From Mobula hypostoma (Eukaryota): a DNA stretch of 64,000 bases. Both the position numbers and the translations under genes were made by a program. Location: assembly GCF_963921235.1 (NCBI RefSeq), contig NC_086097.1:85934001-85998000 (forward strand), given 5' to 3'. Under the pieces are notes generated by a model. The model had not been told where the DNA came from and searched no databases. It saw only the letters and a list, made by a program, of their open reading frames with translations. Shown here piece after piece: positions 1 to 52,100 of this stretch. Within the stretch, counting starts at the first letter, position 1. The number at the start of each line of letters is the position of its first letter.

Positions 1-1549
1 TTGTGCCGAACATGTCCCTACCTTAGAAATTACAAGGCTTACCCATAGCCCTCTATTTTTCTAAGCTCCATGTACCTATCCAGGAGTCTCTTAAAAGACC
101 CTATTGTATCCGTCTCCACCACCGTTGCCGGCAGCCCATTCCACACACTCACCACTCTTTGCATAAAAAACTTACCCCTGACATCTCCTCTGTACCTACT
201 CCGCGGCACCTTAAATCTGTGTCCTCTTGTGGCAACCATTTCAGCCCTGGGAAAAAGCCTCTGACTATCCACACGATCAATGCCTCTCAACATCTTATAC
301 ACCTCTGTCAGGTCACCTCTCATCCTCCATCGCTCCAAGGAGAAAAGGCTGAGTTCACTCAACCTGCTTTCATAAGGCATGCTCCCCAATCCTGGCAACA
401 TCCTTGTAAATCTCCTCTGCACTCCTTCTATGGCTTCCACATCCTTCCTGTAGTGAGGCAACCATAACTGAGCACAGTACTCCAAGCGGGGTCTGACCTG
501 GGCCCTATATAGCTGCAACATTACCTCTCAGCTCCTAAATTCAATTCCACGATTAATAAAGGACAATACACCATATGCCTTCTTAACCACAGAGTCAACC
601 TGCGCAGCTGCTTTGAGCATCCTATGGACTCGGACCCCAAGATCCCTCTGATCTTCCACGCTGCCAGGAGTCTTACCATTAATACTATATTCTGCCATCA
701 TATTTGACCTACCAAAATGAACCACTTCACACATCTGGGATGAACTCCATCTGCCACTTCTTAGCCCAGTTTTGCATCCTATCGATGTCCTGCTGTAACC
801 TCTGACAGCCTTCCACACTATCCACAACACCTTCAACCTTTGTGACATCAGCTGACTTACTAACCCCACCCTCCACTTCCTCAAGAAGGTCATTTATAAA
901 AATCATGAAGAGTGAGGGTTCCAGAACGGATTCCTGAGGCACACCACTGGTCACCATCCTCTATGCAGAATATGGCCCGTCTACAACCACTCTTTGCCTT
1001 CTGTGGGCAAGCCAGTTCTGGATCCACAAAGCAATGTCCCCTTGGATCCCATGCCTCCTTACTTTCTCAGTAAGCCTTCGATGGGGTACCTTATCAAATG
1101 CCTTGCTGAAATCCATAGACTCTACATCTATGGCTCTGCCTTCATTAATGTGCTTAGTCACATCCTCAAAAAATTCTATCAGGCTCGTTATGCATGACCT
1201 TCCCTTGACAAAGCCATGCTGACTATTCCTAATCATGTTCTACCTCTCCAAATGTTCATAAATCCTGCCTCTCAGGATCTTCTCCATCAACTTATCAACC
1301 ACTGAAGTAAGACTCACTGGTCTATAATTTCCTGGGCTATTTCTACATCCTTTCTTGAATTAGAGAATAACATCTGCAACCCTCCAATCCTCCGGAACCT
1401 CTCCCGTCCCCACTGATGATGCAATCATCATCGCCAGAGGCTCAGCAATCTCCTCCCTCACCTCCCACAGTAGCCTGGGGTACATCTCATCTGGTCCCGG
1501 CGACTTATCCAACTTGATGCTTTCCAAAAGCTGCAGCACATCCTCTTTC
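1..1549 (-). mobile_element. CR1 LINE, decayed ORF2 (RT and C-terminal part), running off the window start
   Basis: Minus-strand ORFs 961-1236 (QHGFVKGRSC, DFSKAFDKVPH), 727-957 (SGVPQESVLEP, FINDL) and 39-521 (RPRLEYCAQLW, RGHRFK) are typical CR1 ORF2 segments broken by frameshifts. Confidence 0.93.
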
Positions 1550-1550
1550 C

Positions 1551-1649
1551 TGGTTTTGGAAGATGCTGTGTAGATTTGGTCACCTGCCTACAGGAAAGAT
1601 GTAAATAAGGTTGAAAGAGTAGAGAGAAAATTTGCAAGGATGTTGCTAG
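1551..1649 (+). mobile_element. Short CR1 ORF2 fragment, opposite orientation
   Basis: Translates as ...WSPAYRKDVNKVERVERKFARML, the CR1 C-terminal motif. Confidence 0.75.
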
Positions 1650-3438
1650 CAACACGCACAACACATTGGAGGAACTCAGCAGGTCGGGCAGCATCCATGG
1701 AAATGAACAGTCAACGTTTCGGGCTGGAACCCTTCGTCAGGACTGTAGGGGGAAGGGGCAGAGGCCCTATAAAGAAGGTGGGGGGAGGGTGGGAAGGAGA
1801 AGGTTGGTAGGTTCCAGGTGAAAAACCAGTAAGGGGAAAGATCAAGGGGTGGGGGAGGGGAAGCAGGGAGGTGATAGGCAGGAAAGGTGAAGAAGGAATA
1901 GGGGAAAGCACAATGGATAGTAGAAGGAGGCAGAACCATGAGGGAGGTGATAGGCAGCTGGAGGAGGGGGCAGAGTGAAACTAGGATGAGGAAGGGAGGA
2001 GGAGGGAATTACCGGAAGTTGGAGAATTCAATGTTCATGCCAAGGGGCTGGAGACTACCCAGACAGTATATGAGGTGTTGCTCCTCCAACCTGAGTTTAG
2101 CCTCATCATGGCAGTAGAGACGGCCATGTATGGACATATCCGAATGGGAATGTGAAGCAGAGTTGAAGTGGGTGGCAACCGTGAGACCCTGTCTGTTGTG
2201 GTGGATGGGGCGGAGGTGCTCGAAGAAGCGGTCCCCCAATCTGCGTCGGGTCTCACTGATGTAGAGGAGGCTGCACTGGGAGCACCGGATGCAATAGATG
2301 ACCCCAACAGACTCACAAGTGAAGTGTTGCCTCACCTGGAAGGACTGTTTGAGGCCCTGAATAGTGGCAAGAGAGGAGGTGTAGGGACAGGTGTAGCACT
2401 TATGCTTGCAGGGATAAGTGCCGGATTGGAGATCCGTGGAGAGGGACGTGTGGATCAGGGAGTCGCAGAGGGAACAATCCCTGCGGAAAGCAGAGAGGGG
2501 TAGAGTGGGAAAGATGTGTTTAGTTGTAGGGTCCTGTTGAGGGTGGCAGAAGTTGCGGAGGATAATGTGCTGGATCTGGAGGCTGGTGGGGTGGTTGGTG
2601 AGGACAAGGGGAACTCTGTCCCTGTTGTGGTGACGGGAGGACGGCGTGAGGGCGGAAGTGTGGGAAACGGAGGAGATGTGGGTGAGGGCATCATTGATGA
2701 CAGCAGAAGGGAAACTATGATCCTTAAAGAAAGAGGACATTTGAGATGTCCTGGAATGGAAAGCCTTATCCTGGGAGCAGATGCGGTGGAGATGGAGGAA
2801 CTGGGAATAGGGAATAGCATTTTTGCATGTGGCAGGGTGGGAAGCGGTTTAGTCGGGGTAGTTATGAGAGTCAGTGGGCTTATAGAAGATGTCAATGGAC
2901 AGTCTATCTCCAGAGATGGAGACCGAGAGATTGAGAAAGGGGAGAGAAGTGTCTGAGATGGACCAAGTGTATTTGAGGGCTGGGTGGAAGTTAGAAGCAA
3001 AGTTGATGAAATTGATGAGCTCAGCATGGGTGCAGGAAGCAGCACCAATGTAGTCATCAATGTAGCGAAGGAAAAGTTGGGGAGCAGTACTAGTATAGGT
3101 TTGGAGCATAGACTGTTCCACATAACCAACGAAGAGGCAGGCATAGTTGGGGACAATGTGAGTGCCCATAGCTACACCCTTGGTCTGAAGAAATTGGGAA
3201 GAGCCAAAAGAGAAGTTATTAAGTGTGAGTACCAGTTCCGCCAACAGGAGGAGGGTGGTGGTGGTGGGGAACTGGTGAGGTCTATTGTCCAGAAAGTAGC
3301 GGAGGGCTTTGAGGCCTTCTTGATGGGGAATGGAAGTGTATAAGGCACCACCTGCCTTCTCCTTCCCACCCTCCCATCATCTTCTTTATCGGGCCCCTGC
3401 CCCATCCCTCTTCAGTCCTGACCCGAAACGTTGACTGA
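1650..3438 (-). mobile_element. Penelope-like element (Neptune-type RT + Cys linker + GIY-YIG), 5'-truncated, with a short inverted terminal copy at ~3346-3438
   Basis: ORFs 2849-3244 (KGVAMGT, RYIDD) and 2009-2740 (YPCKHKCYTC linker; VIYCIRC..LLYISET GIY-YIG). 3346-3438 is a + strand copy of the terminus at ~1707-1810. Confidence 0.92.
1707..1746 (-). ncRNA. Minimal type I hammerhead ribozyme (PLE terminus)
   Basis: Reverse complement reads ACAGTC-CTGACGA-AGGGTTCCAGCCC-GAAA-CGTT-GACTGT: 6-bp stem I, CUGANGA and GAAA cores, palindromic ACGU stem III, GUU cleavage triplet. Confidence 0.85.
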
Positions 3439-3699
3439 TCAAATGATCTCCGTTTAGGTACTCAAATGATCTCCGTTTAGGTAGCAATTGAGATAACCCC
3501 AATAGCTTCTGTGGTACTGAACTTGAAAAAAAAGAGTATTAGTTATTCTTCATAGAATTGACTCCTGATCAATCTCCAGGGAAGCATATTTACCGACGCC
3601 AGTCAAGGACAGGATTAACTATTGTTTTCATCAATAAGCAGTTTTAAAACTATGCAGATCTTTATAAAATTAATAAACAAGGGTTAGAATAAGTAATTC

Positions 3700-4588
3700 A
3701 GGGGGTCAAGATGGTGCCAGCGAAGATTCCTCAGACGACATCTTCCAGATAGCAAATCTCTTCAATGATTTCACTGTTTCTATGCCTTCTGCTTGTTCTT
3801 TTTGTTTTGTCTGTGTTATACAAACTGTTGGAATCTGTGACATTCAGTTTGGAACTCAATCGAATGATCTCGTGCCCTGCTGCAAACGGGGAGCTGCCTT
3901 GCGGAGAAGATCAGAAATGGAGACCTGAAAATACGAGCTGACTCGTGGAAAAGACCAGAGATGGGGCATGGGGTCATGAATGATTCCATCTCTAAGTGGC
4001 GAGGAAGATTGAAGCATCGAGGTGAATGTAGAGGGGGTCAGCGATCGCTCCTAACGGAGGGCGCCAAGGCAGTGACGGTCAGCAGCCAGGTCAGCGGTTT
4101 TTGGACTTGGGTCGTCAACATTTAGACCTGGCATGGTGGTTTTTCTTCACGGAGGGATTGAGTTCATGCAGCTACTCTCCTTGTATGCTGACGGAAAGAT
4201 GTTTTCGATATTCTGAGACCTAGGTCTGTGATTTATACTGGTCTCCTTCAGTTTTATGGTGTTTTCTTTCTTGTGGCCGATGGCGGGTGAGTAATCAGTT
4301 GGATTTTTTGTGTGTGAGAGGGCGGTTGGGGGTTTTGATGTTGCTGCCACTGTTCTTTTCTGTGAGTGAGGGGGCGGGGATTGTTATTGTAGCTGTTTCT
4401 TTCTGCGGGGAGGGCATGGGATTTTGGGGTCTGCGGGTTTTGTTTCTTTTTTTTGTGCTGGGGGGTAGTTGATGTTTTTTCTTTCAACAACTCCCATGGT
4501 TATTCTGTATTTCATAGCTATCTGGAGAAGATGAATATCAGAGTTGTATTGTACATGCATACTTTGACAATAAAATGAACCTTTGAAG
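3700..4588 (+). mobile_element. Non-coding, probably non-autonomous LINE-derived element (CAAGATGG head, CAATAAA..TTTGAA tail)
   Basis: Begins GGGGTCAAGATGGTG and ends GACAATAAAATGAACCTTTGAA. Same architecture at 17781-18594, 47836-48879 and 54996-57486. Confidence 0.55.
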
Positions 4589-6587: not shown

Positions 6588-9529
6588 TGTTATGTATTTA
6601 ACATTTCAGTAATATTGATTAATATTGTAAATATATGGTTTGATTAAGCATTCTTGTTCATTTAAATAATTCATTATGGGTTATATGTAAACTACGTGAT
6701 TTGCATACATCATGACGCTACTACGTGATAAGTACATGCCTTGCTTAAAGTAAAAATTGAAGTACATATGTTTATCTCCTGGCTCCCCATTTTCCTTTTT
6801 TGGAGTTACAAAACATAGCAGTGATGATGAGGTATCTTAAAACCGAACCCAAGATGACTACCTACCCATTGAAGCACAGTGAGACATGCAAGTAAAAAAA
6901 ATGCAGCGGAGAAAAAAAACAGTGCAGAATGTGCTTTTTTTTAAAGAAAAGGAGACGTTTGACTTAAAAAAAAGGCAGAGGGCGGAGAAATTCACCTGTT
7001 CATAAACAGTGAGCACCAGGTGATAATAATCATAAAAAAGAGCAGGAATTACTGGCTACATCGGAAAGATAGACATGTTCGATTGCACAAGGGATACCTG
7101 GATATTGTATATTGAGTGAATTGAACAGCATTTTAAAGTGAATGGCTAGCCAGTGAGAAGCGAGTGCCAATTTTGCAGAGCACATTGGATTTAAAAGCAT
7201 ACAATTTGCTTAAAGGTTTAACTGCTCCAACCAAACCAGCTGAAATGAGCTTTGCCTATATCATGACTGTTAATGCAGGAATATTTAGAACCAAAGCCAT
7301 TGCTTATTACAGAATACTTTAGGTTTCATAAGTGGAATCAAAAGGAAGGGAAGTCCATTTCAAAGTTGTTGGCTGAATTGAAACAGTTGTCTGAGCATTG
7401 TCAATTCAGTGATGGGTTTAATGATGTATTGAGAGATTGTTTTGTTTATGGAATTTTACAAGAAAGCATTCAAAAATGGCTCTTAACTGAAGCACAACTT
7501 GCATTTAAAAGACCAGTTGAAATACCTATATCGATGGAAACAGCAGACAGAGCCGTAAATGAATTGCAGTCAGGAAATAAAGTGAGTGTGAACAAAATTG
7601 CAATGTCTAAGTGGAAACCTGTCTGGCCAAACAATTTGTACTACTGTTGTGGCAGGGGCTCACATACACCAGATGAATGCAGTTTCAAAGGCAAAATCTG
7701 CAGAAAATGCAACAAAGTAGGACAAAGAGCATGCTTGGCAGACAAAAATTAATGGACTACACAGGGAAGAAAAAAAAGCTAAAAATTCAAGTTACAGTTT
7801 CAAAAGAGCACTATTCTGCACGCTGTTGATGAAAAATCTGATAGTGTTAAGGGTGACACAGGACTGTGTAGTCTTGAAATTTATAATATGAAAATAAACA
7901 ATAAACAAACAGTATGGTTTACACCAGAAGTGAAATATAAATTAATTAAAATGGAAGTGGACATTGTCTTGGCTATTTCAGTTGTTCCACAAAAAGTATT
8001 GAATGGCATTTCAAAGATACTGAACTGAAGCCTGCAGATATCCAATTAAGAATTTGTACTGGCAAAAAGATAACTCCTGTGAGAATGGCATTTGTGACAG
8101 TGAAATACAATAACCAACCCCACATATTGGGCTTGTATATGGTAAAAACAGGAGGGCCAACATTGTGGGGATATGAGTGACTGAGACACTCAGTCCCTCT
8201 CTCTCATTGGAAACTAACAGGTGTCTCTTAGTCCTTCTTTCTCAGGGAGAGATGTGTACCCTGCCCGGTGTCTCTCAGTCCCTCTCTCTCAGTCCCTCTC
8301 TCTCAGGGGGAGAACTATCATATCTCCTACAATAGAGTCAACAGAAAGCAAATTAACAAAGTTACTGGATGATGGTGCAACTGTTTCCATACTGTACACT
8401 ATGAACCATTGCTCAACCAAAGACAAATAGGTATTGGTGCCAACCTCCGTGCCTCTGATTAGAGAGCATATTGGACCAAAGGAAAACCTGTTGCTTAGAG
8501 GAATTGTGAAACTGACAAAAGCAGTGGTCCGACTAAAACAGTTTTTGTAGGCAGCCTATCTGAGAAAGCCTCTGATATGTTAATCAGGCAATGACTTGTG
8601 AAATGTGGCTATGTTTTAAGCTGCAAGAGAGTTTGATAAGCTTCAGGAAAGTTGCAAGCATGCGACTTTTGTGAGTATAAAGAACCAGAATCTACTCTGT
8701 GTGCATTAAGGCTATTGCATGAACATCAATTGGGAGGTGAAAAGCTGAAAGTAAAAGTGGATGCAAATACCAAAGCTCAGCTGAATGAATGGAAGGCCAA
8801 AAAGAGTGAATGGAGATAGAAAAACAGAGGATTTGTCAGATGATGTTGATGTGGGGAAACCAAGAGGAGCGATCAGATCGTAAAGGGAGCAACAGAAGGA
8901 TTAATAAGAGAATGATCCACGGTACTAAATGTGCCTTCCCAAGATCAAGATGCATAAACTAGAAGAAAAGGAAAGAGAAGAAACGTGCCCAGAGCTTTCA
9001 GAAACACTTCCCACAATCCCAGAGTCAACTCCTACAACCACAATGGACCTGAGATTTTTTTCACAGTCATAAGTCTCACCTGCAAAGCAGAGTGACCTCC
9101 TTGTCAGGAAAGACGTTATTCTATAGGAGTAAGAACTCCTCCATGGTAGTTGCATCTTTAGGCCTGAATGGGACAGTTTAAATTTACTATGCTGTGGATG
9201 TGTATAGTAGTTCTATTATATAGTATACTGTGTATATAGTTGAGATGCTTTCTCTTTTGAGTTGGAATTTATAGCTAATCGGGGAAGGGTGTTGTGTATA
9301 TAATATTTCAGTAATATTGTAAATATATTCTTCGATTAAGCATTCTTGTTTGTTTAAATAATTCATTATGGGTTATGTGTAAGAATACGTGAATTGCATA
9401 CGTCATCACGCTATCACATGATACATACTCACCTTGCTTAAAGTAAAAATGGAGTATACACATTGATCTCCCGGGCCCCTTGTTTCCCTTTCAATTAGTT
9501 TTTATGTTTTGGAGTTAAAAAACTTTACA
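6588..9529 (+). mobile_element. Non-autonomous Gypsy (Mag/K02A2.6-like) LTR retrotransposon carrying a captured host gene fragment
   Basis: Similar TG..CA LTRs at 6588-6820 and 9290-9529. Degenerate PBS after 6820, PPT GGGGAAGGG at 9281-9289. Gag ORF 7273-7752 (EPKPLLITEYFRFHKWNQKEG, zinc-knuckle remnants), protease remnant ~7950 and pol C-terminal remnant ~8985-9170. Confidence 0.88.
8431..8980 (+). pseudogene. RBM25: Intronless, decayed RBM25 fragment (RRM and flanks) inside the Gypsy element
   Basis: Reads VLVPTSV...SGPTKTVFVGSLSEKASDMLIRQ*LVKCGYVLSCKRV**ASGKLQACDFCEYKEPESTLCALRLLHEHQLGGEKLKVKVDANTKAQLNEWKAKK...ETKRSDQIVKGATEGLIRE*STVLNVPSQ. This is collinear with vertebrate RBM25 as I recall it (GPTTTVFVGNISEKASDMLIRQLLAKCG...KVDAKTKAQLDEWKAKK...ETKRRDQMIKGAIEVLIREYSSELNAPSQ). 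Contains stops and frameshifts. Confidence 0.92.
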
Positions 9530-11336: not shown

Positions 11337-11378
11337 ATGAAACAGTTCGGCGGCGGCAGCGGCAGCGGCAGCAGCTAA
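11337..11378 (+). promoter_or_regulatory. Upstream ORF (MKQFGGGSGSGSS*) in frame with TTC9
   Basis: GCACCATGA at 11337, TAA at 11376-11378, one GAG codon, then the TTC9 ATG at 11382 (45 nt offset, same frame). Confidence 0.6.
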
Positions 11379-11855
<477 letters not shown>

Positions 11856-49180: not shown

Positions 49181-52100
49181 TGTTACGTACCCCGTAACTG
49201 GGTTGCCAAACCAGCAGAAATGGATTACTCAGTTGGAGTCTGGATTACTGGAACTAAGAAAGTTTTATTAAAGAAACAAGCAACACAGTACTCTAATCAA
49301 AAGGATAATAAATGCAACAGTTCAGCAGTGATAAACACACATGTACACAGAATTAAGATAACAGGATCAATCAAGCTCTATCGTTGCCTAGGGGTAAATG
49401 ACCAGTTTCAAAGTGACGCAAAGTTCAGTTCAATTTAGTTCAGTTCAGTTCGCAGTAATCGCTGCCGTGGCGATGGACAGTGGGGGGAAGGAGAGAGAGA
49501 GCAAAACGAAAGAATATTCAAACGGCTTCCACACAGACCTTCGCAGTCAGCTTTCGTGCGAGTCCTTTGTGATGTCATCTGAGGTCACCGACCGTGACCC
49601 CTCCGTTTCCAGATACGATCGTTTCCCTGTGGTGAACCTGGCACCCAGGCAAGGGTGGACACACACCAGGTTCCCGCCGATCGTGCCTTTCCACCCTGTG
49701 CGTCTATGGCCTGGTCCCGCAACCGGCCTTCCAAAACTTCCCACCGACTTGTGAGAGATGCACTGCTTCCAGGGTCTTGTTACCTCGGGTGTCGTGTGTG
49801 TCCTGCCTTAGCGAACCTGTCCCTTTTTATCCCCCTGCTGGGGTATCGCCTGTCCATCACTTCAAACAGTTCAGGGTTCAAAGGGGGAGCCGATCTTGAC
49901 AGCTCTCTCCTTCTGTTACTCTCTCCCGTCCCTTCATTACACATCTCCAAATGCTGCTCCATTGTTTTCCTTATCTCTCTGTCTCCTGAAGACAGGTGGC
50001 AGACCAACTGCTGATCCCACTGGTGCCAGCCCAAGACAGCTAACATCTTTATCTATTGGTATTCTTGTCACACTTCCCCCCTTTAAGGATTTTTACCGGG
50101 GTAAAAACTACAAACATGAATACATTATTTGATACACACAAATACACATCTTTATCAGCTGTTTGGCTTATACAGCGAATTTGAAGTTGTCAGCACCTTG
50201 ACAGACAGTCAGTAATCACATTTTCCGTTCCTTTTATATGTGTTATTAGTAATCCCTTAGACCAGGCTCCAACTTAGCATACTTCATAGTGGCCAAAAAC
50301 ACTGATGAATTGCGATCAATGTAACCTCTCATTGGGTTTCATCCCGGACCACAATAACAAGGGTCGTCCCATTCCGACTTAGTTTTCTCTCGCAAGGGCT
50401 TAGTAGAGGGGGAGGGGTAATAACCGCAGAGTTATTGCAAAACTTACTACAGTACCCCACCATCTCCAAGAGCCTTCTGAGGGCCCTCTTGTCTGTCGGG
50501 GTTGGGATGTCAGAGATAGCCCGCACTTTAGCTTGCAACGCTGCCAGCTGCCCCTGTGTCACCACAATTCCCAGGTAAGTGACCTTCGTGTGGCCGAACT
50601 CATTTTTTTCAGGGTTCACTATCAAGCTGGCTTCAGACAGTCGTATTACATTGCCAATACACACCTTTGTGTTCGTCAGCCCTTTTGTCACTGAATTACT
50701 CATTCTATATGGAATGTTGCTCGCTAGACCACCCAACGTCCCAGTTCTTTGCATCGCCTCGGGAGAATCAAACACACGTGTGCGAGTTGTTTAATTACTT
50801 CTCCTAAAGAGTCGCTTTGTTCAGGGATTAAGGGAGAGACCTTATCAGCAGCGCTGGCCAAAACAATAGCCTTCTCCCATCTGGTCGATACCATACTCAT
50901 CTTTTCAAAATGGTTTTTTTCTCTTATCAGGGGGACCCTAGCTTCATTGATTTCCGCGCTAACACCGACTAGGTTTATTAGCATATCAAAAGCCTGTGAC
51001 CATCTCAGTTCGCGTCGGCCATAATCAATAACATCCTTCCTCCGGTGCAGCTGGGAAACCTCTTTCATGATTCCACCAATTGTTCCCTCCAGTACCGCAA
51101 AATGTCCACCGGGGGGTACCTTGTGGGCCAGGTTAAAAACCTCATCCCCATAACTCTTTTGCACCACCCCCTATTCCTCATCTGCGGGTACGGTACTTGG
51201 TCTCCCTTTCTTCCTTAGCACTTCTTTCTCCACACAATAGCCTACTAGTTCCCTTGTTAAGTCTGTGTCAGAGAGAGCTGTCTCCGCCCAAACCATCAGC
51301 CCCTCATCTCGCTCCCGCGCCTACACAAATTCTTTCCTGGCTAATGCTAAGTCTGTCTCAGCTCCCTCACTACCTCTTGTTTCACTACACTCCTTCTTTT
51401 CACTTTCTACCCCCTTCTCGTACAAGGTTGGCAGAAACGTCTCAGCTAAATTTACTACCGCAATCCCGTGATGAACCTGTGAGCCCATGGGCGGGGCCTC
51501 AATGCTGGCAGGCTGACCTGTCAATCTCACGGCTGGGAACACGATTCCCCCGGCGAGGTCATTACCGAGCAAGACTTCCACGCCTTTCATGGGTAATTTG
51601 GACCTCACCCCGATCGTGACTAGTCCAGAGACCAGGTTGCTTTGTAAGTGTATCTGGTGCAAAGGGACGGCCTCTGTCCCTTCCCCAATACCTTTGACCT
51701 TGACCTCCCCAGTCTGGGTCTCTGAGCTAAACGCTAATACACTCTTCAGTATTAGTGACTGACACGCTCCCGTGTCTCTCCAGATCCGCACTGGAACTGG
51801 TTTTAACCCCTCTTCACTGACACCAATCCGGCCGAGATAAACCTCTCACGCCCTTCCTGAACTTTGGCAGACCTTTCCTCTCCTAGCAGTTCGTTTACCA
51901 GTCAAAATCGCCATTTTTCCTTTTCCCGTCTCCTTCTTTGGGGCAAAGCACCTGGACGCAAAGTGTCCGACTTTCCCGCAATTATACCAGACGACCCCAG
52001 GAGACTTCCTACCAGACTGCTCCCGGTCTACCTTATCCTTCTCACTAGTCCCCGGCTTACTTACTGACTTTTCTGGCGGACTCTCCTCGCCTCCCTGACT

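Follow-up and report, generated by a model that had tools for sequence, protein, structure and literature searches.

The window analysed here, a 64,000-nucleotide stretch of the Mobula hypostoma genome (NC_086097.1, positions 85,934,001 to 85,998,000), contains a Ty3/Gypsy LTR element in which part of the pol region is replaced by an intronless fragment of the host splicing-factor gene RBM25. Very probably, a Gypsy retrotransposon captured spliced RBM25 mRNA by a double template switch, the resulting derivative was copied in trans in one old burst, and its copies have decayed neutrally since. The source gene, the parent family, both switch points and a series of later deletions can all be read from the genome.

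Anatomy of the element

Coordinates below are those of the window. P0122, the one relative returned by a gag query (56% identity), is a 1,250-aa Gypsy polyprotein from the sturgeon Acipenser sinensis with the domain order protease, reverse transcriptase (RT), RNase H, integrase.

6588..6820, plus strand: 5' LTR, 83.4% identical to the 3' LTR, with ends as in other family copies
6821..6832, plus strand: putative primer-binding site, assigned only by its position directly behind the 5' LTR
7043..7760, plus strand: gag remnant with zinc knuckle region, stops and frameshifts, from six-frame translation; start approximate
from 7273, plus strand: part of gag matching P0122 at 49-56% identity
7910..8186, plus strand: frameshifted protease remnant, matching residues ~215-309 of P0122, whose residues 223-313 are an RVP/gag-asp protease
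8189..8318, plus strand: CT-rich repetitive stretch, private to this copy and skipped by family alignments
8319..8372, plus strand: linker between protease and RT in the parent pol, reaching the 5' switch point; 77-90% match to RT-bearing parent loci up to ~8374
8373..8382, plus strand: 5' junction, the last 10 nt of RBM25 exon 3, with a 7-nt microhomology to the parent pol (eroded here)
8383..8430, plus strand: 48-nt in-frame RBM25 exon '3a' (source C1:99832633-99832586; 38/48 identical)
8431..8955, plus strand: RBM25 exons 4, 5, 6 and most of 7, intronless, with the RRM, assigned by identity to the source exons; 3 indels
8956..8983, plus strand: remnants of RBM25 exons 9 and 10, from the deletion series across copies, assigned by eye from alignments
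8976-8983, plus strand: 8-nt 3' microhomology, at the end of the exon 9/10 remnants
8984..9280, plus strand: C-terminal tail of the integrase, with the 3' untranslated part of the parent; window and parent loci match from 8976 onward
9281..9289, plus strand: polypurine tract, read from the sequence before the 3' LTR
9290..9529, plus strand: 3' LTR, aligned to the 5' LTR, with ends as in the family

The LTRs are direct repeats with TG...CA ends, as in Ty3/Gypsy elements, and are identical at 181 of 217 aligned sites (K2P 0.19). The gag and protease remnants match residues 1-345 of P0122 (E 1e-70), and nothing within the element matches residues 346-1190, which cover RT, RNase H and the integrase core; the replaced part of pol corresponds to about these residues, or roughly 2.5 kb. 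These comparisons bear out the original prediction of a Gypsy element with two LTRs, a polypurine tract and remnants of gag and protease, from which RT, RNase H and the integrase core are missing. The element resembles the fish element in its gag, its LTRs, its purine tract and its 5-bp target duplication; unlike P0122, it is without RT, RNase H and the integrase core, and by its coding content it is classed as a non-autonomous Ty3/Gypsy derivative. At the position of the CT-rich stretch, between protease and linker, four other copies have different, shorter sequence.

Two other features of the window were noted. On the same strand, 1.85 kb behind the 3' LTR, an open reading frame encoding a TPR-like protein (weak matches) starts at 11382. 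The element had been placed ~2 kb upstream of TTC9; of this claim the distance stands, and TTC9 is a tentative name for the neighbour. The nearness looks incidental, because with more than 1,000 copies in the genome a copy close to the start of a gene calls for no particular explanation. A 13-codon upstream open reading frame (11338-11379) ends two bases ahead of the start codon at 11382. Elsewhere, an unrelated RT remnant lies on the minus strand at 50410-50643 (33% identity to P0122).

The RBM25 insert and its source gene

A profile search with the five stops read as X finds an RRM in the insert (PF00076, E 2e-6), and among the 120 protein matches listed of 221, all were named RBM25 or uninformatively named. 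The source gene, found with an RBM25 C-terminal query, lies at C1:99.79-99.84 Mb, on the same contig as the window and ~14 Mb away; over its N-terminal part it shares 96.6% identity with a protein of the shark Heptranchias perlo and 79-83% with those of bony vertebrates, which marks the host as a cartilaginous fish. Three Pfam PWI matches in the genome were also considered as the RBM25 gene and rejected, since they translate as other PWI proteins, presumably SRRM1-like and PRPF3-like.

Exons are numbered here by what we take to be the numbering of the human gene. The insert is identical to source exons 4, 5, 6 and 7 at 145/170, 48/58, 132/156 and 120/140 positions (82-86%), without introns, and it crosses the junctions 3|3a, 3a|4, 4|5, 5|6 and 6|7. 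With a strong RBM25 match that spans five exon junctions rather than lying within a single exon, and an exon-by-exon intronless map to the host gene, the proposal that a spliced RBM25 mRNA was captured stands. Its details required revision: RBM25 had been placed at 8431-8980, correctly as to identity, whereas the first base of the insert is 8373, 58 nt before that position, and the insert includes an overlooked 48-nt exon; at the A/G-rich junction proposed at ~8975-8985, exon 7, short pieces of exons 9 and 10, and the true switch point come together. Neither a poly(A) tail nor a duplication flanking the insert was present at its junctions. On sequence grounds the insert has the characters of an LTR-mediated retrocopy, namely an intronless partial mRNA in place of internal reading frames, with microsimilarity at both ends.

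Parent family and switch points

A query from the start of RT returned 30 loci, 26 of which match the gag or protease DNA of the element and none of which holds RBM25. These parent loci share a 7-mer, TGCCACA, with host exon 3, in the same codon phase, and run on from it into RT. The triplet that follows TGCCACA, just before exon 3a, is the host exon-3 triplet in 33 of 52 copies and the parent triplet in none; the crossover therefore lay inside exon 3, which excludes splicing from a donor in the element. The 5' junction is in frame because the microhomology covers the same pair of codons in parent and host. At the 3' end, the 8-nt sequence AGAAGAAA is common to the parent integrase tail and host exon 10, and is exact in two of three anchored parent loci. 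At random points, 7 or more bases would be shared by chance with a frequency of 0.0008 and 8 or more with a frequency of 0.0002, the latter figure being too low for the 3' end, where the sequence is low-complexity and purine-rich.

Large internal pol deletions without captured sequence were seen in eight parent-type copies (L074, L082, L087, L089, L094, L105, L108 and L115), so internal deletion is common in the family.

A series of deletions within the insert

Longer copies of the insert reveal how much RBM25 was taken up. With a query spanning exon 8 there were 394 candidates and 39 further copies that were scored, and those with a readable 5' end share the same 5' junction; one copy (L028) still has exons 7 and 8 with a large part of exon 9, and its end lies in exon 10. 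The original capture is therefore placed at mRNA positions 147-1218, reaching exon 10, a length of about 1.07 kb. Most copies, including that in the window, have lost positions 737-855 (119 nt, frame-shifting) and more of the repetitive exon 9. In the window copy, the A/G-rich remnant is made up of exon 7 together with some 16 nt from exon 9 and some 12 nt from exon 10; this copy is a deletion derivative and belongs to the commonest sub-lineage.

Copy number and spread

A 601-nt query gave 2,826 first-look candidates, and all 40 that were scored, the window itself aside, matched at 79-83%. The insert was found in the same context at 29 of 29 other top loci fetched, and a 17-mer across the junction has 271 exact matches genome-wide vs one for the control. 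It had been suggested that many copies sharing these junctions would represent an amplified non-autonomous family, and this is what the counts describe. An 18-mer common to parent and derivative occurs 804 times; among the first 30 of these sites, on contig 1, eight carry RBM25, 21 run on into parent pol and one does neither. Sampled copies were either best-scoring matches or first matches on one contig, and are a non-random set.

We estimate that what was probably a single capture event was followed by multiplication to about 1,000-2,200 copies. Four calibrations gave 1,084-2,159; a fifth, from copies picked for their likeness to the window, gave 4,065; for the direct calibration, the interval was 517-3,712. 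The figure is a wide-range estimate, reaching 500-4,000 at its extremes, in which overlap counts of 3/8 and 9/44 were read by hand.

Copies occur on many contigs with differing flanks and with target duplications that differ from copy to copy. Among 20 extended copies and the window, eight elements had both ends; their 5-bp target duplications were exact in three (one of which, L053, depends on an LTR start set 2 nt by eye), matched at four of five bases in two and at three of five in two, and were absent in one. The duplication of the window copy is eroded to three of five bases. One copy (L008) carries a tandem duplication of most of its RBM25 insert. An exon 3a-4 peptide of a copy was compared with 1.84 billion protein representatives, and none of the six matches inspected among 61 was a gag-RBM25 fusion.

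Divergence, decay and age

Of 63 aligned inserts, 58 (33 short and 25 long) were analysed, incomplete or short alignments being excluded. Their tree is star-shaped, with terminal branches of 0.099, internal branches of 0.007 and a stem to the host gene of 0.037. Rare changes have a pN/pS of 1.11. No copy among these 58, out of more than 1,000 in the genome, is free of both stops and frameshifts; no inactivating stop is common to all, the commonest being present in 8 of 58. The pattern is one of neutral decay, and these copies give no indication of the purifying selection that would mark a functional retrogene or a domesticated element. Differences from the host that are common to all copies number 21, of which 20 are synonymous, slightly above the expectation for neutral decay (P 0.02-0.10); these silent differences would fit substitutions that the host gene, under selection, has gained since the capture.

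LTR pairs differ by K2P 0.17-0.24 in seven of eight elements and by 0.40 in one. Long copies have a pairwise divergence of 0.217 vs 0.178 for short copies, the two sets having been differently chosen. The longest intron contig of organism B differs at 13 of 1,109 bases, and the burst predates the split from that organism. Dating by LTR divergence, as originally proposed, yielded a distance for the window element, whereas its conversion to years was implausible: the rate of 7e-10 per generation given for the epaulette shark (PMC10587355) leads to an age of about 1.4e8 generations, which we rejected.

Exon 3a and the captured splice form

Exon 3a is a 48-nt stretch of intron 3 with a pyrimidine tract, an AG acceptor and a GT donor, which keeps the reading frame. 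It is a real exon: runs X4 and X6, which come from two studies and are guessed to be RNA, have contigs that join it to exon 4; it is present in shark proteins P0123 and P0127; two annotated Heptranchias isoforms start inside it; and exon 3 is joined directly to it in the assembled protein P0128. Among 188 fetched proteins it occurs in three, all from cartilaginous fish, and in a first round it was present in none of the 70 RBM25 proteins (of 121) whose exon-4 start could be scored. None of the 21 differences common to all copies falls within it, where 5-7 would be expected for neutral DNA (P below 0.01). A role as a poison exon was considered and rejected, the exon being 48 nt long, in frame and stop-free. 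Exon 3a (C1:99832586-99832633; L041) contains two in-frame ATGs. Some shark RBM25 isoforms have four extra residues, through use of another acceptor ahead of exon 4.

The host gene has a further in-frame exon of 30 nt between exons 3 and 3a, on the minus strand at C1:99837476-99837505 (L159:8777-8806). All four runs examined splice exon 3 to this exon and then to exon 3a or exon 4; the sequences are contigs, from which rare forms drop out, and three of the runs are guessed to be RNA, the fourth being of uncertain kind. A direct joint between exons 3 and 3a was not among the joints listed for the four runs, five further joints being unlisted. The 30-nt exon is present at none of 89 loci and in none of the 188 fetched proteins, and its last triplet precedes exon 3a in none of 52 copies. 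Its absence from the loci, together with the missing triplet, argues that the captured RNA was the exon 3-3a-4 splice form. Either the 30-nt exon arose after the capture or germ-line splicing skips it; a gain after capture is possible.

Origin of the family and alternative explanations

We propose that a spliced RBM25 mRNA was packaged together with the RNA of an active Gypsy LTR retrotransposon in one particle. Reverse transcription would have switched templates at the 8-nt sequence shared by RBM25 exon 10 and the integrase tail, and again at the 7-nt sequence shared by the end of exon 3 and the protease-RT linker. The resulting element would have retained gag and protease between its two LTRs, together with the purine tract, and would have had about 1.07 kb of RBM25 in exchange for about 2.5 kb of pol. 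Because its own RT and integrase are missing, the derivative would have been copied in trans by the parent family, in one old burst, and later deletions in the purine-rich region of exons 7-10 may then have produced the shorter sub-lineages. No evidence contradicting the capture was found.

Capture may have happened in this way and the spread nonetheless have been driven by the captured piece, through a founder Gag-protease-RBM25 fusion or through shielding from small-RNA silencing; we regard this as unlikely. The in-frame 5' junction, the slight excess of synonymous common differences and the share of the derivative, about a quarter of the family sample (8/30), speak in its favour. Yet the frame is explained by a microhomology over the same two codons in both partners, and the commonest sub-lineage bears a 119-nt frame-shifting deletion. 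Variants of the sub-lineages, seven amino-acid-changing vs five silent outside CpG, are indistinguishable from neutral (P 0.11), and change on the host branch accounts equally well for the common silent differences. If the RBM25 piece did aid the spread, whether by making silencing costly to the host or as a Gag-protease-RRM fusion, silent sites of the host gene would have evolved faster specifically in the captured exons, escaping cross-silencing; this we consider doubtful.

It is very unlikely that the insert arose by oncogene-style transduction, in which the donor of an element residing in RBM25 was spliced to the exon-3a acceptor and template switching made the 3' junction alone. The visible match in the window copy does begin exactly at an exon start, and about 36 kb upstream of RBM25 exon 2 there is a solo LTR that belongs to the family. 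The triplet ahead of exon 3a, however, is that of host exon 3 in 33 of 52 copies and that of the parent in none, so exon 3 was part of the RNA; intron 3 yielded no family sequence, and the solo LTR (G000:C1:99876649-99876891) is on the strand opposite to the gene.

LINE retrocopies are often spliced and sense-oriented, and so is the insert; a LINE-made RBM25 retrocopy that entered an existing Gypsy element later would account for these two properties. It is nevertheless highly improbable here, since the insert has no poly(A), no duplication at its ends and no 3' part of the mRNA, and since it replaced ~2.5 kb of pol instead of interrupting it, with microhomology at both ends. The LINE origin that the original prediction had set against capture is refuted by these features. 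Segmental duplication of one locus holds for a single near-identical pair (L008 and L011 on G000:C96, 1.2 Mb apart, the closest pair at a distance of 0.012) and can be dismissed for the family, given the differing flanks, the target duplications particular to each copy, the many contigs and the star-shaped tree.

Relationship to known captures

Capture by double template switching, our preferred explanation, is a mechanism already known; the scale of the spread and the record of a splice form are unusual. Tan et al. 2016 (PMC5131818) describe LTR-mediated retrocopies of such anatomy in six animals, and propose further non-autonomous copying. As in those retrocopies, the element in the window has its internal reading frames partly replaced by a partial spliced mRNA, keeps both LTRs and is without poly(A); the microsimilarities at its switch points measure 7 and 8 bp vs a median of 6 bp there. 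The nine retrocopies that they report occupy 18 sites in all, two Drosophila retrocopies having more than one insertion site, whereas the RBM25 capture led to an estimated thousand copies or more and a deletion series. Maize Bs1, which joins pieces of three genes between its LTRs, and human HERV-K/FAM8A1, a single processed pseudogene case (both as cited in PMC5131818), likewise hold pieces of host mRNA between LTRs; unlike these, as they are described there, the present case involves one gene, one capture and a very large spread, with no sign of retained function. Transposons of gymnosperms also multiply captured exon fragments, conifers averaging about 39 elements per donor gene (PMC13477047). 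Those figures are averages over many genes and mixed mechanisms in plants; the RBM25 family, in contrast, stems from a single defined vertebrate event and has far more copies per donor. Our literature search, in which coverage of subscription journals was poor, found no paper on an LTR family carrying RBM25, nor any on LTR-derived retrocopies in Chondrichthyes or on non-autonomous elements that hold a cellular gene in hundreds of copies.

The family is a very clear case of mRNA capture by a vertebrate LTR retrotransposon, in that source gene, parent family, switch points and deletion series are all readable, and it indicates that a single capture can seed a genome with upwards of 1,000 copies of a fragment of an essential splicing-factor gene. 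It also serves as a record of an old RBM25 splice form, with exon 3a in place at the time of capture and the 30-nt exon absent or skipped. The copies may confuse read mapping and gene annotation of RBM25 in this lineage, and they offer a test case of whether captured host sequence can shield an element from silencing.
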